From the IMG/VR virus record IMGVR_UViG_3300045988_154391: 64,000 nt of DNA; one strand, written 5' to 3'. The notes under the pieces were generated by a model. It ran no database searches. It had not been told where the DNA came from and saw nothing but the letters and a program-made list of their open reading frames with translations. This stretch comes from a virus. Taxonomy: Duplodnaviria > Heunggongvirae > Uroviricota > Caudoviricetes. Both the position numbers and the translations under genes were made by a program. Of the stretch, positions 3,779 through 56,373 are shown piece by piece (position 1 is the stretch's first letter; every line of letters starts with the position of its first letter).

Positions 3779-3807
3779 AATCCCGCCAGTCGGCGGGATT
3801 TTTTTAA
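3779..3807. terminator. Intrinsic terminator hairpin between convergent genes
   Basis: Stem TCCCGCC/GGCGGGA (3781-3787/3792-3798) followed by T7 on the plus strand. Confidence 0.6.
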
Positions 3808-16572: not shown

Positions 16573-17013
16573 ATGGCCACACTATCTGATACAATAAAAC
16601 CGAATAAAACATATCTTGAGGCGGTACTCCGTACAGCGTTGTTAGGAAAGACAGAAGACGAATACGTTGATTTCTTCCTGTCAGGGCTACGCGGGCGATT
16701 ACTGAAAAATCCCCGCCTGTACCGCAGCTATGGTCCATACTGGCCGGAAATTAAAAAATTATTACTGGAGCGCGGTTATGGTAATTTCGGTCGTCTCGTT
16801 GACCGTGACGTTCGCAAAATTTACCGTTATGACCGCCCGGCGCTAACACTCATAGCCGCGACGCTCTACAGCCAGGAGCGTTTTGATAATGGTCAGATAT
16901 ACTCAGCCTGGCATTTACTGCCAGTGCCTGAAGAAGTTGACGACCAGGACTATGAGTTTGAGTCTTACGATTTGGAAGTTGAAGCCTTGGCACAGGCTGG
17001 AGAGAAAACTTGA
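16573..17013 (+). CDS. ulx: Ulx-like protein downstream of darB
   Basis: 146-aa ORF in the position of P1 ulx; identification by synteny only. Confidence 0.55.
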   Translation: MATLSDTIKPNKTYLEAVLRTALLGKTEDEYVDFFLSGLRGRLLKNPRLYRSYGPYWPEIKKLLLERGYGNFGRLVDRDVRKIYRYDRPALTLIAATLYSQERFDNGQIYSAWHLLPVPEEVDDQDYEFESYDLEVEALAQAGEKT

Positions 17014-17258
17014 AAAAGCGATACTACACAGTAAAGCATGGGACGCTACGAGCATTACAAGAGTTTGCTGACAAGCATAACGTTGAGGTGCGCAGGGAAG
17101 GGGGAAGTAAAGCTCTGCGCATGTACCGCCCGGACGGGAAATGGCGGACGGTCGTCGATTTCAAAACTAACAGTGTTCCCCAAGGTGTCCGCGATCGGGC
17201 ATTCGAAGAATGGGAGCAGATCATCATAGATAACGCATTGCTCCTGAATGCTGATTAA
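17010..17258 (+). CDS. lxc: Lxc/Bof-like C1 co-repressor (82 aa)
   Basis: 82-aa ORF with TTG start overlapping the ulx stop; size and position match P1 lxc (bof). Confidence 0.6.
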   Translation: MKKRYYTVKHGTLRALQEFADKHNVEVRREGGSKALRMYRPDGKWRTVVDFKTNSVPQGVRDRAFEEWEQIIIDNALLLNAD

Positions 17259-17297: not shown

Positions 17298-17939
17298 TCA
17301 GAGATAATTACCTTTACCCGTCAATTCCCCTTGTGGTACTTGTTTTTGCGCCAGTGTTTGGGTTCCGCGAATTATGTTAATCAGAGGGCTTAGTAACGAT
17401 GGTTCCTGGCGTGCCTCAACTTCTCCAGCCATTGCCCTGATGTAGTCGGCGCTGGCAACGTTGTTGTATTCCGTCGCAAAGCAACATAGTAACGTCAGAA
17501 CATGCTCTGTCGTTATTTCGCTCCAGTTGATGTTGAAAAATTCATCGCCTTTTTTATCGTGTTCGGAATCGAAGATGCTTTGGTGGAGGATGTATTTGCC
17601 GGATTCCTTGCGCGGTAACTTGATTGCTTTCTGGCGTTCCAGCTCCTTATAAATCTGCATTGCCTCAATTAGTACCGGCCTGCCGTTCATGAAGGGATCG
17701 CGCAACCTTACACGCTGGCCAACTCGACCAGTAATAAAGCTGTTTTCCTCTTCCACCAGCACGATAAACCCCTTTTCCTCTTTTTCTCGCAATTCGCGCA
17801 GCAGATGGAGTTCCATATCGCGGCGGCGTTCAGGGTAGCTGGTCCGCTCAGCCATTATCAGCTCGTTATTGATCCATGCAGCAGTCATTGACGCCGGTTT
17901 GCCGACGCTCATCGAAACAACGCATATTTTCTTATCCAT
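17298..17939 (-). CDS. mat: Mat-like protein
   Basis: ATG at 17939 preceded by AGGGGG (track ORF extends to 18086); lies between ref and lxc as P1 mat does. By synteny only. Confidence 0.45.
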   Translation of the reverse strand: MDKKICVVSMSVGKPASMTAAWINNELIMAERTSYPERRRDMELHLLRELREKEEKGFIVLVEEENSFITGRVGQRVRLRDPFMNGRPVLIEAMQIYKELERQKAIKLPRKESGKYILHQSIFDSEHDKKGDEFFNINWSEITTEHVLTLLCCFATEYNNVASADYIRAMAGEVEARQEPSLLSPLINIIRGTQTLAQKQVPQGELTGKGNYL

Positions 17940-18128
17940 AGCGCCCCCTACAAAAAAGAAAAGCCACCAGCGGCGGCTTAGCAATACAACAGAAGGTAGC
18001 GCCCGGTACTCAGACTGTGCCGTCCATGGAATATTTGAAAAGGGATCCATCCGTACCGGGCGTGTGATGATTCTGACTGAAGTCACTTGTCAGTTGTCAA
18101 TCATTTATCATTAAAAATAATATATTTA

Positions 18129-18689
18129 TTAGTGCATGATGTTTGCCATCTCATAGGCGTCAGCCAGTAACTCCATCTCTGACTTGTTCAGCAGGGTGAA
18201 TTCTTTCTTGCCTCCAACCACACCATCGGCATGAACAGGGACCAGCCAGGGGTATTTTGCTCTTACTTCAGCCGGTGCTGCATGCTGGTGGTGCCATCTA
18301 CAAAGTGGCAATTGCTTTTTATGACAACCCGGCGCGGTACGACCGGCGATATGGTGCAGAGACACCTCATTAGATATTACTCCATGCATATAGCAGGCAA
18401 TGCAGGGGAGAGCGCCAAGAGCATTGGCGATGCGCCGTTCCTCCGCCGTTGGTGTTCTCCCCTTCAAGCCACGAGATTTTATTTTTACCGCGCTTTTCCG
18501 CGTTTTGCTGGCTGGTGGGCGCTCTTTCTGTTTAGCGATACGGCGGTCGATAGTATCCCGCATTTTCTGATATTGAGATTCTCGCCAGACCGGATCAGCC
18601 AACTTTTCCCGTTGCCGAGCGATCGCTCGTTCTCTGGCTGCCTTCTGCCACTTGCGGCACTGTTCAATTTTTTGTTCGATTGTTTTCAT
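18129..18689 (-). CDS. ref: Ref, recombination enhancement function (HNH endonuclease)
   Basis: 186-aa protein with HNH-type Cys/His motifs (CIACYMHG ... HH ... CRWHH); size and sequence match P1 Ref. Confidence 0.85.
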   Translation of the reverse strand: MKTIEQKIEQCRKWQKAARERAIARQREKLADPVWRESQYQKMRDTIDRRIAKQKERPPASKTRKSAVKIKSRGLKGRTPTAEERRIANALGALPCIACYMHGVISNEVSLHHIAGRTAPGCHKKQLPLCRWHHQHAAPAEVRAKYPWLVPVHADGVVGGKKEFTLLNKSEMELLADAYEMANIMH

Positions 18690-18695
18690 ATGGTC

Positions 18696-18721
18696 AAAAA
18701 AAAGGCGGCCTAATGGCCGCC
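18696..18721 (-). terminator. Terminator-like hairpin plus U8 in the ref leader
   Basis: Minus strand reads GGCGGCC-AUUA-GGCCGCC-UUUUUUUU, ending 6 nt before the ref ATG, downstream of the Op2-like operators. Confidence 0.45.
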
Positions 18722-18774
18722 TATGATGTCAAGGAGTTAAGTAATGGCACGTCTTCGTAGTTGACAAAAACTGC

Positions 18775-18804
18775 GGCTCAATTATAGCAATAAATTAGAG
18801 CAAT
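18775..18804 (-). promoter_or_regulatory. Overlapping C1 operators upstream of ref (Op2a/Op2b-like)
   Basis: Two overlapping cores ATTATAGCAAT (18781-18791) and ATTAGAGCAAT (18794-18804), about 90-110 nt upstream of ref. Confidence 0.7.
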
Positions 18805-18911
18805 TGTAGACATTTCATTTATCGATAATCACATTTTTTCTCTTCAGTGCCTGTGTGCTATACTCCTTCTTGATTGATTGGATGCGGAATACAAACCCGC
18901 TCTTTTGTGCA

Positions 18912-18938
18912 GCCTGGCTCCTTGCCAGGCTTTTTTTT
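18912..18938 (+). terminator. Plus-strand intrinsic terminator at the cra-like gene 3' end
   Basis: Stem GCCTGGC/GCCAGGC with loop TCCTT, followed by T8. Confidence 0.5.
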
Positions 18939-19248
18939 ATTTCATCATGGAAGCTGTTAACGCTTTGGACCTTGCTGAACTGATTGAAAGGGCATTGTTT
19001 ACCTTACCCAGGAGTTCGCCAAATTCCCCCATCACTCTAGTAAGCCCGCGCCGCGCTTCCTCCTCCGTTGCATTCATCACAAAATGTTCAGCACTCCGCA
19101 TGCTTTTAACGGGGAACGCAACAGATATCGAGTCGATATCAGGCATCCTATCGCTCAACTTTACGGTGACAATGACAGATGGTGACTGAATTTGAGAGCT
19201 TACAGACAGCACCACATATTTTCCGTCTATTTTGAATTCCTTCCGCAT
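18937..19248 (-). CDS. cra: Cra-like small protein downstream of cre
   Basis: 103-aa ORF 50 nt after the cre stop on the same strand, the position of P1 cra. Confidence 0.45.
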   Translation of the reverse strand: MRKEFKIDGKYVVLSVSSQIQSPSVIVTVKLSDRMPDIDSISVAFPVKSMRSAEHFVMNATEEEARRGLTRVMGEFGELLGKVNNALSISSARSKALTASMMK

Positions 19249-19298: not shown

Positions 19299-20330
19299 CT
19301 AATCGCCATCTTCCAGCAGGCGCACCATTGCCCCCGTTTCACTATCCAGATTACGGATATAGTTCATGACAATATTTACGTTGGTCCAGCCACCAGCTTG
19401 CATGATCTCCGGTATTGAAACTCCGGCGCGGGCCATATCTCGCGCGGCTCCGACACGGGCACTGTGTCCAGACCAAGCCAGGTACCTCTGGCCAGAGTCA
19501 TCCTTAGCCCCGTAAATCAATCGGTGAGTTGCTTCAAAAATCCCTTCCAGGGCGCGAGTTGATAGCTGGCTGGTGGATGATGGCGAGGCAACACCATTTT
19601 TTCTGACCCGGCAAAACAAGTAGTTATTCGGATCATCAGCCACACCAGAGACAGAAATCCATCGCTCGACCAGTTTAGTTACCCCCAGGCTAAGCGCCTT
19701 CTCTACACCTGCGGTGCTAACCAGCGTTTTCGTTCTGCCAATATGGATTAACATTCTCCCACCGTCAGTACGTGAGATATCTTTAACCCTGATCCTGGCA
19801 ATTTCGGCTATACGTAACAGGGTGTTATAAGCAATCCCCAGAAATGCCAGATTACGTATATCCTGGCAGCGATCGCTATTTTCCATGAGTGAACGAACCT
19901 GGTCGAAATCAGTGCGTTCGAACGCTAGTGCCTGTTTTGCACGTTCACCGGCATCAACGTTTTCTTTTCGGATCCGCCGCATGACCAGTGAAACAGCATT
20001 GCTGTCACTTGGTCGTGGCAGCCCGGACCGACGATGAAGCATGTTTAGCTGGCCCAAATGTTGCTGGATAGTTTTTACTGCCAGACCGCGCGCCTGAAGA
20101 TATAGAAGATAATCGCGAACATCTTCAGGTTCTGCGGGAAACCATTTCCGGTTATTCAACTTGCACCATGCCGCCCATGACCGGCAAACGGACAGAAGCA
20201 TTTTCCAGGTATGCTCAGAAAACGCCTGGCGATCCCTGAACATGTCCATCAGGTTCTTGCGAACCTCATCACTCGTTGCATCGACCGGTAATGCAGGCAA
20301 ATTTTGGTGTACGGTCAGTAAATTGGACAT
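19299..20330 (-). CDS. cre: Cre tyrosine recombinase
   Basis: 343-aa protein starting MSNLLTVHQNLPALPVDATSDEVRKNLMDMFRDRQAFSEHTWKMLLSVCRSWAAWCKLNNRKWFPAEPEDVRDYLLYLQARGL, essentially the P1 Cre sequence; loxP about 415 bp upstream. Confidence 0.97.
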   Translation of the reverse strand: MSNLLTVHQNLPALPVDATSDEVRKNLMDMFRDRQAFSEHTWKMLLSVCRSWAAWCKLNNRKWFPAEPEDVRDYLLYLQARGLAVKTIQQHLGQLNMLHRRSGLPRPSDSNAVSLVMRRIRKENVDAGERAKQALAFERTDFDQVRSLMENSDRCQDIRNLAFLGIAYNTLLRIAEIARIRVKDISRTDGGRMLIHIGRTKTLVSTAGVEKALSLGVTKLVERWISVSGVADDPNNYLFCRVRKNGVASPSSTSQLSTRALEGIFEATHRLIYGAKDDSGQRYLAWSGHSARVGAARDMARAGVSIPEIMQAGGWTNVNIVMNYIRNLDSETGAMVRLLEDGD

Positions 20331-20558
20331 TTAACACTCAGATAATGGTTTAAGTAAAGTGTACAGGATCGGCTCTGCCTTTACCTGTTTATGATTCTCG
20401 TCATAGAAACGCCAGCGACCGCGCGTGCGTTCTATTTTCTCTTCACCGCGCGATAATGACAGTTGACAACTATCACGATCAAACCCTTTTGCCCGCCAGT
20501 AACCACGGTTTTTCTCAAGCTCAAGATGAGTGGACACTTTAGCAGCTGAATATCCCAT
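20331..20558 (-). CDS. Small basic ORF (75 aa) immediately upstream of cre
   Basis: Stop TAA directly abuts the cre ATG; start preceded by GAGGTG and the recurrent CCAATCAATCA motif. May instead be non-coding cre promoter region. Confidence 0.3.
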   Translation of the reverse strand: MGYSAAKVSTHLELEKNRGYWRAKGFDRDSCQLSLSRGEEKIERTRGRWRFYDENHKQVKAEPILYTLLKPLSEC

Positions 20559-20747
20559 TTTTCACCTCTGATTGATTGGTGGTGCTAAGTGCGCTACGCG
20601 AAATCTGGAGCACTAACACTGCCAACATTTCGCAGATTTTACGTAGCGCAACCTTGATCAAATGATCAAGTGATCACTATTTGACCTGATAAGGTATTGA
20701 ACTGTATGGATTTACAGGTAAATTGATCATGTTCAATAACCCTTAAG

Positions 20748-21482: not shown

Positions 21483-22334
21483 ATGATAAATTATGTCTAC
21501 GGCGAACAACTGTACCAGGAGTTCGTCAGCTTCAGGGATCTCTTTCTAAAAAAAGCTGTTGCACGCGCCCAACACGTTGATACAGCCAGCGACGGTCGTC
21601 CTGTACGCCCGGTTGTCGTTCTACCGTTCAAAGAAACTGACAGCATTCAGGCTGAAATTGATAAATGGACTTTAATGGCGCGGGAACTGGAACAGTACCC
21701 AGACCTCAATATCCCAAAGACTATTTTATATCCAGTGCCTAACATCCTTCGCGGTGTGCGCAAGGTTACAACTTATCAGACAGAAGCTGTGAACAGCGTC
21801 AACATGACCGCTGGCCGCATTATTCATCTGATTGATAAGGACATTCGCATCCAAAAAAGCGCGGGGATCAATGAGCACAGTGCGAAATACATAGAGAACC
21901 TGGAAGCAACAAAAGAGCTAATGAGGCAGTACCCGGAGGATGAAAAATTCCGTATGCGCGTACACGGCTTTAGCGAAACAATGCTGCGCGTCCACTACAT
22001 TTCCAGTAGCCCTAACTACAATGATGGTAAATCAGTTAGTTACCATGTGCCACTGTGTGGCGTGTTTATCTGCGATGAAACTCTCCGTGATGGAATTATC
22101 ATCAACGGTGAATTCGAAAAAGCAAAATTTAGCCTTTATGACTCCATAGAACCGATCATCTGCGACCGCTGGCCGCAAGCAAAAATATATCGCCTGGCAG
22201 ATATTGAAAATGTAAAAAAACAAATTGCCATCACTCGCGAAGAGAAAAAGGTTAAGTCAGCCGCATCAGTTACGCGCAGCCGTAAAACCAAGAAGGGGCA
22301 GCCAGTAAACGACAACCCCGAAAGCGCGCAATAA
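21483..22334 (+). CDS. c1: C1 repressor
   Basis: 283-aa protein starting MINYVYGEQLYQEFVSFRDLFLKKAVARAQHVD, matching P1 C1; strong GGAGGAGG SD. Confidence 0.95.
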   Translation: MINYVYGEQLYQEFVSFRDLFLKKAVARAQHVDTASDGRPVRPVVVLPFKETDSIQAEIDKWTLMARELEQYPDLNIPKTILYPVPNILRGVRKVTTYQTEAVNSVNMTAGRIIHLIDKDIRIQKSAGINEHSAKYIENLEATKELMRQYPEDEKFRMRVHGFSETMLRVHYISSSPNYNDGKSVSYHVPLCGVFICDETLRDGIIINGEFEKAKFSLYDSIEPIICDRWPQAKIYRLADIENVKKQIAITREEKKVKSAASVTRSRKTKKGQPVNDNPESAQ

Positions 22335-37284: not shown

Positions 37285-37462
37285 GCATCCCCCTTACCCA
37301 TGTGCGACGATGCCGCCAAAAGTGATAGAGAACAGCCAGAAATAGATCGCGGCCATAATGATTTTGAATGCCGTGTTCATATTTTCATCTCCTGTGATTG
37401 ATTGGATACATGCCGCGCCTTGCGGCATGTTTTTATTTTCACTTTCTCTGTTTTAAAAATCA

Positions 37463-37985: not shown

Positions 37986-38057
37986 ATGCCCTCCTCATTG
38001 GACGAAAAAAATGCTGGTGGGCGCACTCCACCAGCATTAAAAGTGACACTGTAACTG

Positions 38058-39320
38058 TCAGCGAACGTAAATAGTGCCGCCGTTCTCTTTTTCCCATGCA
38101 TCGCTACGTGCATAGCAAACATCGAGAAGTCTTCTTGCCGCTGTTTCCTCTAAACCCAATTCGACAACCAACTGCTCATGACGGCGGGTAACCACATCAA
38201 ACAGGGTATGCAGCCCTTTAGCTGCCAGATCATCAATAAATTCCGGTTCGAACGGCAGCTCTGCCTCTGCCAACATAACCTCTTGCGCCCACTCAACTCG
38301 ACGGACCAGTTCCGGGCGGCGGCTTTCCATCTCTTTACAGATCAATTCATGGAAGAACTCTACCCAACCTTCCGGCTGGAACTCGCGGAAAATGGCCAAC
38401 GGCTGGAAGTTTGGCATCAACCATTCGTTGATCCGGATATCAATGGCATAGCCCATGTCGCAGCAGAACTGATAAGCAAAGTCCAGCTTAGAAACGATAT
38501 AAGGACGCTCGTTATTGAACTCTTTAGGCGATGAGATCCCATAAGCCAGGAGGCGCGGGAAGAAGGAGATTTGCCCTAACGTCGGATGAAGTTTGCTTGC
38601 AGGGAAACGGCGCTCAGTAATGCCATACATTTCCTTCTTGAGCGTCGCAAATTTGGCATTCTCATTAACCAGCGCGGTAACCTCTGCTTTTTTATTAGCA
38701 AATGCCACGCGCGCTTCGCTTGCATCTTTAATAGTTTTTTTGAGCTGTTGGTTAAGGTCGGCGACCTGCTTACGCAGTTCCTGTCGCTCGCTTTTAGCTT
38801 TGTTATAGCGTTTCTCAAGGTTAAAAGGATCAAGTTTCATGATCTCTTTATATTGAGATTTTAGCGTTGAAATCTGTGAGTTCCGCAGTTCAACCATCGC
38901 GGTCATTTCATTGAGTTTTGTTTCCAGCTCAATGCTTATACGTTCGGCATTATCAGCACGCTGGTTGGCGTCATGCGTCGCATCGTCGATCGCGTCCTGT
39001 TGCTGGCGTTTCAAATGTTCAATTTGCAGCTGAAGCTCTTCAATTTCTTTACCCTTCAGACCGAGATCCAACTGCATATTTTCAGCTGCATCGACCAGGG
39101 AGTTATGGCTATCAGCTTCTGCGTTATAAACATCAATAAGCTGTGCGTGAAGCATCTCCGCTGACTGAACCGCATTATCAAAAAAACGTGCTGTGAGGTC
39201 ATCACAACTAACGCGGCGTTGCGCGGCCCGGATGTTCTGGATAATGGCCGGGATACCGGCATTCAGGACATCAGGGATAGATACATTTTCGATTGATTGG
39301 TTTTGTGCTGAAGTGCTCAT
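38058..39320 (-). CDS. Coiled-coil protein (420 aa)
   Basis: Long heptad-rich central region. Confidence 0.6.
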   Translation of the reverse strand: MSTSAQNQSIENVSIPDVLNAGIPAIIQNIRAAQRRVSCDDLTARFFDNAVQSAEMLHAQLIDVYNAEADSHNSLVDAAENMQLDLGLKGKEIEELQLQIEHLKRQQQDAIDDATHDANQRADNAERISIELETKLNEMTAMVELRNSQISTLKSQYKEIMKLDPFNLEKRYNKAKSERQELRKQVADLNQQLKKTIKDASEARVAFANKKAEVTALVNENAKFATLKKEMYGITERRFPASKLHPTLGQISFFPRLLAYGISSPKEFNNERPYIVSKLDFAYQFCCDMGYAIDIRINEWLMPNFQPLAIFREFQPEGWVEFFHELICKEMESRRPELVRRVEWAQEVMLAEAELPFEPEFIDDLAAKGLHTLFDVVTRRHEQLVVELGLEETAARRLLDVCYARSDAWEKENGGTIYVR

Positions 39321-53794: not shown

Positions 53795-56373
53795 ATAGCC
53801 ATAACGTCATGAGCAACACCACGAGTGTCTCCCTTACAAGACACAGAACGTCTGGCAAAGAGAGGTTCCACTCTGAAGCCTCTGTCCTGATAAAGTTCTC
53901 TGACGTTTGGCGCGCCACTGTTAGTAATGAGTACCTTTGCACCTCGGCGATGAGCATCCGTCAACAGAGACACCAGGCGTTTTTGCTCTTCAAACTTAAA
54001 GTCATGACCGGAATAGTTCGTGAACCCCTCTGTATTGGGGAGCGGTTCATACGGCGGATCGCAAAAGATGACATCTCCTTCTCCGGCAGCTTCAATCACT
54101 GCTGCAAAATCACCGCATACAAACTCAGACCGCCCTTCCGCACCGAGGAAGGCTTCCATCTCCTGTAATGGGAAATACGGAGTTTTATACTTCCCATAAC
54201 CGACATTGAACTCACCGGCCTGGTTGTAGCGCGTCAATCCGTTAAAACAATGACGGTTCAGGAACAAAAACGCCGCTGCGCGATGTAAATCATCATAGAC
54301 TTGTTTGTTAAACGCATTCCGTACTGCCAAGTATCCCTCCTGGGTGTTGTAGTCCAGGAAAAAACGATGTGCCAGAGTGATAAGTGAATGCTCCTCGCGT
54401 TGCAGAGTCTTGTAAAAGTTAATCAGGTCAGCATTCACATCATTTAGCAGATTTTCCTGGTATCCGGCATTCATGAAGACAGCTCCGCCACCGACGAAAG
54501 GTTCAATCAGGCGCTTCCCTTCTGGCAAATAGCGAAAGATTTGTTCCAGAACACCAAATTTTCCACCGGCCCATTTGAATATGGACCGTTCGAATTCTGC
54601 CGCTGGTTTAACTTTTCGCTCTTTTGTTTCACTTCCTTCTTTCTGCCGACATACGGCCTTAGTAATCCGATCGCCAATCCAGCGCATTACTGGTATTGCC
54701 ATACTATTGCCGATCGCTTTGTAACGCGGTCCGTCAGCTGCAAGCATCGCGGCCTCTTCTTCGCTTAAATCTGGATAGTGATTGCGAAGATATGCCAGTT
54801 CATCTGAATTAACTTTTTTACGCTTTTCCGTCGGGATCAACGTATGCCCATCAGGAAAACCTTGAAGTCTCTCACATTCGACAGGGGTAAGACGGCGAAC
54901 ACTCATCATATGAGGTAAGTAACCATTCTCACCTAATTCGCCTTTTTCAATACTTTTCTGCCCCCCAAAAGATAACGCAACGGCGTCAGCTGTAGCGCGG
55001 GAATCAAGAGTAAAACTTATCTCTTTTTGCCACCCTTTACCTTGCGGTCCAGCATCATCTTTTCGCCCAATTTGTGCATGTTGTAGCGAATACGCAACAG
55101 CTGGTGGGCAGCCTGCATTTGGATTGCTATTAACAGAATTACCTGATCGTAAAGTCGGAGAACATTCAATAGAAACATCTTGTCCATAATCTTTGCAGGA
55201 AAAAGCTACAACTGCATTTTCTTGACCATGGTTACGACCAATAGTATGTGCCAATTCACAATTAACATCAGGATCTTGTGTTCCATGAATAGCCATCACC
55301 GCCAGATGTTCGTGACTTTCTTGTGATCTGGCACGAAGAGTGCCTGCACCTTCACGCCAACTACCAGCACCAGTACTACTGAAAACAGCTAAATCGGTTG
55401 CATCTTTAAAATCTCTGGCCTTGACAGTAGAAGCAGTCTCATCATCAGCATATTCGCCAAATGCAACCATTCGATAAGCACCAACAAGCCCACTTCCGCG
55501 CTGCGCAAAAATCTCTTGGTTACTTGCACCGATTCCGCCAGTATTGTGTGACTGGTTAAGTGTCGGGTGAGGATTTACAGGGTTATCCCAATGGCTCCCG
55601 CTTTTAATGCCATTTCCAACATTTCCGGCAACTTCCTTCCCCTCGCCTCTGCTCGGCGCAATATTCCGGCGCACGCCTTCGAACTCAAAAAGTACCGTTG
55701 CGGGATCGAGGTCTGTTCGAGCACTTGCGACAACAAACACGCGTCGGCGTCGTTGTGCCACTCCGAAGTATTGGGCATCAAGGATTCTCCAGGCCACCTT
55801 TCGCTGCGGTCCATAAATACAACCACACTGCGGCCACTTTGGAACATGGCAACCGGTTTTGCCATCCCACCGCCAGAACGCGTTGCTTTTTCCTGATTCA
55901 GGTCGATCACCTGGTTCAAATGGCACATCTTCTCCAGCCAATCCGGCAAGGAAACATCCGAAGGCGTTATCTGCCGATGACAAGACTCCTGGGACATTTT
56001 CCCAGACGATAACGGCTGGTTTGAGAAATGACTCAGCCCGTTTGTCGTCAATTGCATTTGCAAGCTCCACATACTTTAAAGTTAGCGCGCCACGCTCATC
56101 ATCAAGCCCACCACGTAATCCCGCGATACTGAATGCCTGACAAGGTGTTCCCCCGACGAGCACATCAGGGGATTCGATTTCCCCAGCCAGGACTTTTTTG
56201 GCAAGTTTTGTCATGTCGCCAAGGTTGGCGACATGGGGCCAGCGGTGCGCAAGAACGGCAGATGGAAAAGGCTCGATTTCAGCAAACCACGCCGGACGCA
56301 TACCCAACGGTTCCCAGGCAATACTCGCGGCTTCAATTCCACTGCAAACAGATCCATAGCACAGCTCTTTCAC
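53785..56373 (-). CDS. dmt: Bifunctional DNA methyltransferase: C5-cytosine MTase N-terminal, Dam-like N6-adenine MTase C-terminal
   Basis: C5 motifs ([39 protein letters not shown]) then N6 motifs (FKWAGGK, CDPPYEP); GTG start coupled to the hrdC stop. Confidence 0.85.

Follow-up and report, generated by a model that had tools for sequence, protein, structure and literature searches.

What do two strong terminator-like hairpins, lying on opposite strands 190 bp apart, do between the genes c8 and ref of a P1-family phage? The stretch of DNA in which they lie, here called the window, is a 64-kb sequence (64,000 nt) from virus record IMGVR_UViG_3300045988_154391. It comes from a phage of the P1 family (Punavirus) and is ~95% identical to P1 around c8-ref. 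We hold it probable that the c8-ref region contains two back-to-back units, each closed by a strong intrinsic terminator: a minus-strand unit in which the hairpin nearer to ref (hairpin A) serves as the ref attenuator, and a plus-strand unit in which the other (hairpin B) forms the end of a small RNA (sRNA). Hairpin B most likely ends an unannotated, highly conserved ~67-nt sRNA gene that lies beside c8 and is divergent from the ref promoter P2ref, as the layout and conservation of the sequence suggest. P1 is among the best-studied phages and the source of Cre-lox, and P1-type phage-plasmids widely carry resistance genes; a nearly invariant sRNA gene 3' of cre-c8 would, if real, be a new regulatory component and may bear on the role of c8. 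The genes concerned are as follows.

18129-18689, minus strand: ref, 186 aa, RecA-dependent HNH nuclease, PF16786 (open reading frame (ORF) list, P1 annotation, Pfam tag on homologues)
18937-19248, minus strand: c8, 103 aa, 'establishment of lysogeny, putative' (ORF list, P1 annotation)
19299-20330, minus strand: cre (ORF list and P1 annotation)
20331-20558, minus strand: cra, 75 codons, upstream of cre (ORF list and P1 annotation)

Two opposed terminators between c8 and ref

P1 annotation was transferred to the window by offset (window position = position in the P1 record, L001, + 16599). Identity between 18100 and 19300 is 96% with phages JL22 and RCS47 and 95% with P1; the c8-ref intergenic stretch reaches 98% identity to P1, and hairpins A and B are both the same as in P1. 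The scan of both strands was strict, requiring a perfect stem of 7 bp or more (6 or more of the pairs G/C), a loop of 3-8 nt and a T-run no shorter than 7; it returned only four hairpins in the 64 kb, A and B among them. No hairpin of this class occurred in 100 dinucleotide-preserving shuffles of the window. Conservation was assessed in a family sample of 80 related loci, which reduce to 54 distinct intergenic haplotypes.

Two other comparably strong terminators are present in the window, at 3779-3800 on the plus strand and at 38010-38038 on the minus strand. The latter sits between pmgS/shtB and pap and has no annotation in the P7 record. Terminator features at the c8-ref hairpins are likewise absent from the P1 and P7 records, which is uninformative, since P7 also omits the equally strong hairpin at 38010-38038.

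Hairpin A stands between P2ref and the ref start codon

The elements of the minus-strand unit, in order of position, are these.

18696-18703, minus strand: U8 tract of terminator A; fills the usual Shine-Dalgarno position and is followed by GACCAT and the ref ATG
18704-18722, minus strand: hairpin A, stem GGCGGCC/GGCCGCC, 7 bp, all G/C, loop ATTA
18722-18749, minus strand: P1ref, weak predicted promoter (P1 annotation, promoter scan of P1, window-P1 alignment)
18723-18778, minus strand: ref leader from P2ref, with a CUCC(Y)UGAC box immediately preceding the hairpin and common to all four lineages
18781-18809, minus strand: P2ref, -10 TATAAT at 18781-18786 (promoter scan, P1 annotation)
18788-18804: C1 operator Oref (formerly Op2a), overlapping P2ref (P1 annotation)
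18818-18824, minus strand: H-NS nucleation motif CGATAAA, between the two divergent promoters

A first-pass annotation of the locus, made from its letters without database searches, had described a perfect 7-bp GC hairpin followed by U8 at 18696-18721, and these coordinates are exact. Along the minus strand, AGGCGGCC-ATTA-GGCCGCCT runs into a T-tract (T8 overall), and GACCAT and the ref ATG (18689) come after it; in plus-strand terms the arms occupy 18704-18710 and 18715-18721 and the A8 run occupies 18696-18703. An optional extra A.U pair (18722/18703) can close the stem in the window, not in P1. Seven G/C pairs and one A.U pair, a 4-nt loop and an adjacent U-tract are what is expected of an intrinsic terminator, and the T-run lies on the minus strand only, which makes the terminator one-directional. 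The hairpin alone folds at -16.6 kcal/mol. Folding of the leader had been proposed as a check, and it favours the terminator: in the full ref leader at equilibrium (-26.2 kcal/mol) the terminator stem prevails, none of its pairs having a probability below 0.997. The sequence also bears out the earlier remark that the T-run ends 6 nt before the ref ATG with no Shine-Dalgarno sequence in front of it (UUUUUUUUGACCAUAUG).

Op2-like operators, in the plural, had been placed upstream of ref. Only one, Oref, is there; the former Op2b is Omat, which according to the P1 annotation lies within the 3' end of ref. Between the divergent promoters stands CGATAAA, which Ronayne et al. (2016, PMC4713147) reported as the H-NS nucleation motif of the regulatory region 5' of ref. 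P1ref reads TTGCCA-16-CATCAT in P1; its -35 in the window is GTGCCA, with a 1-nt deletion, and the promoter is not conserved in the sister lineages described below. A transcript from P1ref would start in the 5' arm of hairpin A and so could not form the terminator.

On the minus strand, no terminator was found between the c8 stop codon and hairpin A. Transcripts of cre-c8 should therefore cross Oref and the leader and stop at A, and a second role of hairpin A as the cre-c8 terminator is probable from this arrangement. In such a scheme, C1-repressed P2ref transcripts and cre-c8 read-through would both reach terminator A, 14 nt before the ref start. Terminator A would insulate ref from the cre-c8 transcription expected to go on in the lysogen and would attenuate ref output once C1 is gone. 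The ref mRNA would then consist of the read-through fraction together with any transcripts of the weak P1ref that start within the hairpin, and it would be translated, probably weakly, from a U-rich leader that has no Shine-Dalgarno sequence.

An attenuator at this site is already in the literature for P1 since 1988, to judge by a title: a paper on P1 ref by Windle, Laufer and Hays (J Bacteriol 170:4881) reportedly announces evidence for attenuator-antiterminator control. The element is the same, as the hairpin, the U-tract and P2ref/Oref are identical or nearly so in the window and in P1; the differences are the extra A.U pair, the 1-nt deletion at the P1ref -35 and GACCAT in place of GCCAT, none of them essential. 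What is new for hairpin A is the covariation across lineages, the likely role as cre-c8 terminator, and the finding that the antiterminator has no statistical support.

The RecA-dependent nuclease Ref is harmful to the host and raises killing by ciprofloxacin (PMC4713147). A strong terminator between every upstream promoter and ref would help to explain how the gene stays silent in the lysogen despite read-through from cre-c8, and it would fit an induction of ref that is later and weaker than that of other C1-controlled genes, although we infer this link from the arrangement of the elements.

Conservation of hairpin A within and beyond the P1 family

The stem of hairpin A is fixed across the 54 haplotypes apart from C-to-T changes of its 3' base, which give G.U pairs and a longer U-tract. 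Variation is seen in the loop (ATTA, ATCA, TAAA) and in the length of the T-run (7-10). Compensatory changes are not expected inside the P1 family, whose loci are too closely related, and the comparison was extended to Ref homologues at 45-68% identity, which on ~90 kb contigs represent P1-like phage-plasmids. The sister lineages in which Ref is 62-68% identical (L088 from Klebsiella aerogenes; L089 and L177 from Salmonella; L178, L179 and L271; L090 from Pantoea) carry ref in another gene neighbourhood, without cre or c8. These loci, which represent three sister lineages, keep the same order of elements: a C1-type operator (e.g. ATTGCTCTAATATTTAT) over a TATAAT, a ~55-nt leader, a hairpin, T7-8 and ref. 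Their hairpins have a G/C stem of 6-7 bp and a 4-nt loop, and the start codon follows 10-17 nt beyond the T-run (~95 nt in L090). The stems themselves differ, reading GACGGTC/GACCGTC, GACGGTC/GGCCGTC and GCCGCC/GGCGGC.

In an alignment of 13 leader sequences, the terminator was the only consensus structure found by RNAalifold. Pairing is preserved in 98.9% of the alignment cells of the stem, compared with 16-70% when the partners are slid by 1-3 columns, and three of the seven pairs show changes on both sides (G-C to A-U; C-G to U-A via U.G; G-C to C-G). These compensatory pairs amount to few independent events, yet they are what a maintained helix predicts. Hairpin A is, by these sequence criteria, an evolutionarily maintained canonical intrinsic terminator, from which we infer termination itself. 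The attenuator reading of the first-pass annotation gains accordingly in weight, since a canonical terminator stands past P2ref and has been kept in sister lineages by compensatory changes.

One observation counts against extending this reading to ref genes at large. From the Ref clades at 58% identity or less (171-aa prophage forms), the P1-type operator and the leader terminator are both absent, so that the terminator is not intrinsic to ref regulation everywhere; it thus goes with ref genes that have a C1-controlled promoter of their own.

Rearranged plasmids show what is kept when ref is lost. In the Escherichia albertii plasmid p2RM15113 (L087), ref is replaced by a convergent antirepressor gene (ant), and Oref, the leader and hairpin A are kept. 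In pTB-nb1 (L085) and in pHNCF11W from E. fergusonii (L086), ref and hairpin A are replaced together from ~18745 onwards and the promoter is kept. In all three, ref behaves as a replaceable cassette, with c8, the plus-strand RNA module described below and Oref/P2ref retained.

Because the ref leader persists in a plasmid that has lost ref, it is a possibility that the ~83-nt terminated leader, with its CUCCU box, is itself a C1-controlled small RNA. The nearest analogue is StxS, a short RNA produced by early termination past the late promoter of Shiga-toxin phage (PMC7547250). In both cases a promoter-proximal phage terminator would yield a short leader RNA, here the ~83-nt product from P2ref to terminator A. 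The two differ in that the StxS terminator is overcome by the Q antiterminator and StxS is a proven regulator, whereas the ref leader RNA is known from sequence only. The CUCC(U/C)UGAC box (18733-18741, minus strand; at the same place in L088, L089, L178 and L179) resembles the 16S anti-Shine-Dalgarno sequence and is, after the terminator, the best-conserved part of the ref leader across lineages.

Regulated antitermination and translational occlusion as alternatives

Hairpin A could instead be one half of a regulated attenuator-antiterminator switch, in which an alternative leader fold sequesters the 5' arm of the terminator and a signal or factor decides between the two. The 1988 title claims such a switch, and the nascent leader can indeed pair against the terminator 5' arm, through its 5' GCCGC together with GUCAAC and UUGAC, at -14.9 vs -9.1 kcal/mol; the sister lineages offer an analogous predicted pairing of a conserved AACUGUC box with GACGGU. 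Alternative leader folds thus exist in all lineages, but their energy gain is not better than that of shuffled upstream leaders (fraction at least as good 0.02-0.47), and the RNAalifold consensus lacks them and contains the terminator alone. The dominance of the terminator fold at leader equilibrium points the same way. A sensing device in the form of a leader ORF, riboswitch or leader family was not found in the ref leader (Rfam scan), and there is no conserved leader peptide; a protein factor is possible. In P1, a TTG-initiated frame (L001 2091-2153, minus strand) crosses hairpin A in frame with ref and would add 20 codons; it was rejected as a leader peptide, as the open P1 frame is stopped in the window by a TAG (18720-18722) and the T-run that it would cross varies from 7 to 10. 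We regard the switch as possible but doubtful: a specific antiterminator is unproven, and a constitutive partial terminator is the simpler reading.

The first-pass annotation had also allowed that hairpin A might act on translation, by occluding ribosome binding beside the start codon. The absence of a Shine-Dalgarno sequence from ref and the extent of hairpin and U-tract, which together cover -34 to -7 relative to the ATG, would suit such a role. However, the stem stops 14 nt short of the ATG, and in the predicted folds it never includes the start codon or its immediate flank. A G/C stem followed directly by U7-8 is the signature of a terminator, and the U-tract, for which an occluder has no need, is kept in all four lineages. 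In L090 the hairpin lies ~95 nt from the annotated start codon, and in one plasmid it is retained with no ref behind it. The predicted structures thus make translational occlusion by hairpin A very unlikely.

A conserved plus-strand block ends at hairpin B

The first-pass annotation was also right in placing a second terminator on the opposite strand. The predicted plus-strand elements are as follows.

18836-18864, plus strand: predicted promoter, with -35-like TTTTCT, 17-nt spacer and extended -10 TGcTATACT at 18856-18864
18872-18938, plus strand: predicted ~67-nt small RNA, comprising seed, stem 1, U-rich linker, and terminator hairpin B with U-tail
18911-18938, plus strand: terminator B, stem AGCCTGGC/GCCAGGCT, loop TCCTT, T-run

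The plus strand reads AGCCTGGC-TCCTT-GCCAGGCT, followed by a T-run that ends at 18938. The stem-loop (18911-18931) has 8 bp, six of them G/C, a 5-nt loop and an energy of -15.6 kcal/mol; its eight T in total, including the stem-closing T, lie on the plus strand only, so that terminator B is also one-directional. Across the family sample a single C-G to U.G substitution is the only departure from an invariant stem; the loop is variable, and the T-run, inside which the c8 stop codon falls, has a length of 6-9. Some 50 nt ahead of hairpin B, the extended -10 is invariant in the 54 haplotypes, and the adjacent spacer varies at 73% of its columns. The promoter scan lists this promoter in P1 as TTTTCA-17-TATACT, with 9/12 matches and an upstream TG.

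Nucleotide diversity was computed without gaps, since rearranged loci distort gapped sliding windows, and gave the following values, with a span of 0.03-0.13 for the neighbouring genes.

0.006: 18856-18938, from the extended -10 to the T-run (83 nt)
0.035: ref coding sequence
0.050: cre coding sequence
0.055: spacer 18811-18855
0.068: P2ref/Oref
0.097: c8 coding sequence

Among 900 sliding 60-nt windows of the 4.5-kb cra-cre-c8-ref-mat locus, those of the 18856-18938 block rank 9th to 21st lowest in diversity. The limits of the conserved block coincide with the predicted unit: the -10 element opens it and the T-run closes it. The collections searched contain the module in 697 plasmid and 18 phage records, every one from the P1 family, and in no others; it stays beside c8 even where ref has been lost.

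The predicted RNA consists of the seed GAUUGAUUGG (18872-18881), a weakly supported stem 1 (18880-18903), the linker CUCUUUUGUGC and the terminator. Its fold has an energy of -23.2 kcal/mol and a z-score of -3.4, and nt 1-8 are unpaired in both the minimum-energy and the centroid folds. Across 18 distinct variants of the module, the 10-nt seed (GATTGATTGG) is unchanged in 17, and 4 of the 7 positions between the -10 and the seed vary. Substitutions elsewhere in the predicted RNA fall in loops or give G.U pairs, stem 1 excepted. A promoter and an intrinsic terminator of its own (the latter given as 47 nt past the predicted start) are thus present at the sequence level. We propose that the extended -10 promoter would fire away from ref and that terminator B would stop the transcript at the c8 stop codon. 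The product would be a discrete ~67-nt RNA with the anatomy of an enterobacterial regulatory sRNA, namely a single-stranded 5' end, a U-rich stretch, a terminator and a long U tail.

The short plus-strand transcript that the first-pass annotation had postulated therefore stands in silico, on the invariant extended -10, the promoter listed in the P1 scan and the conserved block. Its supposed relation to a neighbouring gene does not: the transcript had been described as antisense to the 3' end of a cra-like gene, but that gene is c8, and the overlap is confined to the stop codon. The plus-strand RNA would be antisense to the c8 3' untranslated region (UTR) or to read-through RNA, not to coding sequence.

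The RNA at 18872-18938 was not found annotated or reported in the sources searched, a literature that did not include the P1 genome paper (Lobocka 2004). A search of both strands against Rfam at a permissive threshold gave no family at its gathering score; the best matches, SorX (22.6 bits vs 46.6) and STnc50 (25.4 vs 55), reflect mainly terminator-like structure. A coding function of the plus-strand RNA was rejected, as the hydrophobic 42-codon ORF at 18855-18983 crosses the terminator and a T-run of variable length (6-9). A type I toxin-antitoxin system was rejected as well, because the frame of this ORF is not conserved and c8 is not toxin-like.

Candidate targets of the predicted small RNA

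The 10-mer CCAATCAATC, the complement of the 5' 10 nt of the predicted RNA, occurs five times in the window against 0.20 expected, and none of 100 shuffles reaches five. One copy is the RNA locus itself, and three of the others lie on sense strands at or near start codons.

20570-20579, minus strand: candidate target 1, CCAATCAATC directly 5' of the cra Shine-Dalgarno sequence (CCAATCAATCaGAGGtgaaaaATG)
37396-37407, minus strand: candidate target 2, the 12-mer ATCCAATCAATC, flanked by a hairpin and by AGGAG, the Shine-Dalgarno sequence of a 28-codon ORF
39291-39300, minus strand: candidate target 3, CCAATCAATC at codons 7-10 of pmgS/shtB

Candidate target 1 is kept in 63 of the 64 family loci with a locatable cra start. 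Candidate target 2 lies in a 5' UTR downstream of the C1 operator called Op(hea) in P7 and ahead of upf86.8, and it is present in P7. The remaining copy, at 48243-48252, is antisense to a minus-strand gene and is probably not a target. The enrichment disappears when two mismatches are allowed, and the other 49 kb of P1 hold no further copies. In E. albertii, the seed variant has no compensatory change in cra. A duplex-energy ranking of all translation starts was too noisy for use.

These sites raise the possibility of a trans-acting RNA that would recognise, by its invariant G/U-rich 5' end GAUUGAUUGG(AU), a C/A-rich box, (AU)CCAAUCAAUC, immediately in front of ribosome-binding sites. Through such pairing it would regulate how the cra(-cre) mRNA made from an upstream cre promoter, the first small ORF of a C1-controlled operon and possibly pmgS are translated. 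We rate this action in trans as unlikely; if true, it would add to P1 gene control an RNA layer beyond c4. The G/U-rich seed of GcvB is said, in work ascribed to Sharma (2007) and Otaka (2011), to pair with C/A-rich elements upstream of ribosome-binding sites, and the predicted RNA resembles GcvB in that its own G/U-rich seed, GAUUGAUUGG, finds its complement in a C/A-rich box immediately before two Shine-Dalgarno sequences. With Hfq-dependent enterobacterial sRNAs in general it has in common a length of 60-80 nt, a conserved 5' end that is single-stranded, a U-rich segment ahead of the terminator hairpin and at least 7 U in its tail. It differs from them in being phage-encoded, with phage genes as candidate targets and no Rfam match, and in being known from sequence alone. 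Within P1 the closest parallel is c4, the antisense RNA of the immI region (Citron and Schuster 1990, as cited in PMC8201110), which is likewise a small regulatory RNA that recognises short complementary boxes in phage mRNA near a ribosome-binding site. Locus and sequence differ, and c4 is processed from the transcript of its target's own operon, whereas the plus-strand RNA would be a separate primary transcript.

Several minor observations concern these motifs. The 28-codon ORF behind candidate target 2 (MNTAFKIIMAAIYFWLFSITFGGIVAHG; 37294-37377, minus strand) is hydrophobic, has a good Shine-Dalgarno sequence and lies between Op(hea) and upf86.8; it has no annotation in P7, and SJ46 lists a 'membrane protein' in the area. 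The ref start region of one sister lineage (L178, 1491-1500; TTTTTTTTGGGCCAATCAATCATG) holds the seed-complement 10-mer directly before the ref start codon, a single case without enrichment over the distant loci. The motif ACAAAAGAGCG(G), complementary to the single-stranded linker CCGCUCUUUUGU of the RNA, occurs at 50279-50290 and 54617-54627 on the minus strand and at 21909-21918 on the plus strand, marginally above chance, with all three copies inside long ORFs.

Alternative readings of the conserved block

Several points weigh against the sRNA gene. Its -35 is poor, with 3/6 matches in the window and 4/6 in P1. Neither hairpin B nor stem 1 shows a double compensatory change in a family that is too closely related for this; distant c8 homologues, sought for covariation in hairpin B, were not found below ~78% identity, and all c8 homologues, at least 78% identical, belong to the P1 family. 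Of the three substitutions in stem 1, two are disruptive, P1 RNA-seq papers, which report at gene level only, mention no RNA at the hairpin B site, and the conservation of 18856-18938 could reflect a function of the minus-strand c8 3' UTR or a joint between mosaic modules. These points lead to a reading in which there is no discrete plus-strand sRNA: hairpin B would either shield c8-cre, as a backstop, from transcription in the antisense direction or stabilise the c8 mRNA at its 3' end, and the block would be conserved as a minus-strand 3' UTR or as a recombination joint of mosaic modules. The weak -35 and the silence of the gene-level RNA-seq papers on this site favour it, and the flanking c8 and ref promoter region are highly variable, as would be expected around a module boundary. 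On its minus strand, moreover, the block presents a hairpin, CCAATCAATC and an AAGGAG-like sequence, in which it resembles the 5' UTR at 37396-37407. The T-run, however, makes hairpin B a terminator on the plus strand only, the minus strand continuing with GCACAAAAG, and the conserved block starts exactly at the invariant TGnTATACT and stops at the T-run. A minus-strand gene behind the AAGGAG at 18864-18869 was rejected, as no start codon follows and the AAGGAG is variable, its complement reading CTCGTT or CTCTTT among the variants. We consider a locus without the sRNA rather unlikely.

If the plus-strand RNA is made, it could act purely in cis, on the model of lambda OOP: by pairing with the c8 3' UTR or with cre-c8 read-through RNA it would trigger RNase III cleavage, lowering c8 expression or read-through toward ref. 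OOP is a 77-nt antisense RNA convergent with cII, and the cII/OOP parallel is reportedly to be found in Krinke and Wulff (1987). Like OOP, the predicted RNA is short, has its own promoter and intrinsic terminator, and converges on the 3' end of a lysogeny-establishment gene, c8 being annotated as putatively such, in parallel with cII. With no terminator ahead of hairpin A, c8 transcripts must contain the complement of the whole RNA, and the module always travels with c8, ref loss included. In contrast to OOP, which overlaps ~50 nt of cII coding sequence, the plus-strand RNA overlaps only the c8 stop codon (18937-18939), and thus lacks the substantial coding overlap typical of OOP; the two RNAs have no sequence similarity. 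Pairing in cis also leaves unexplained the contrast between the invariant first 10 nt and the variable nucleotides immediately before them, and the over-representation of the seed complement elsewhere in the genome. We regard action in cis alone as possible, if questionable.

Neighbouring features

In many database entries c8 is given as 69 aa with an internal start, compared with the 103 aa of the full frame (18940-19248). The least variable 60-nt windows of the cra-mat locus lie at 17735-18059, in the 5' part of mat and the adjoining sequence, where diversity is 0.002-0.006; this may reflect a nearby overlapping late promoter, LPmat/Pmat, with the operator Omat. Further along, lxc (17010-17258, plus strand) directly adjoins mat (17298-18086, minus strand) in the window; the type III restriction-modification genes res and mod, which stand between lxc and mat in P1, are absent from the window phage.

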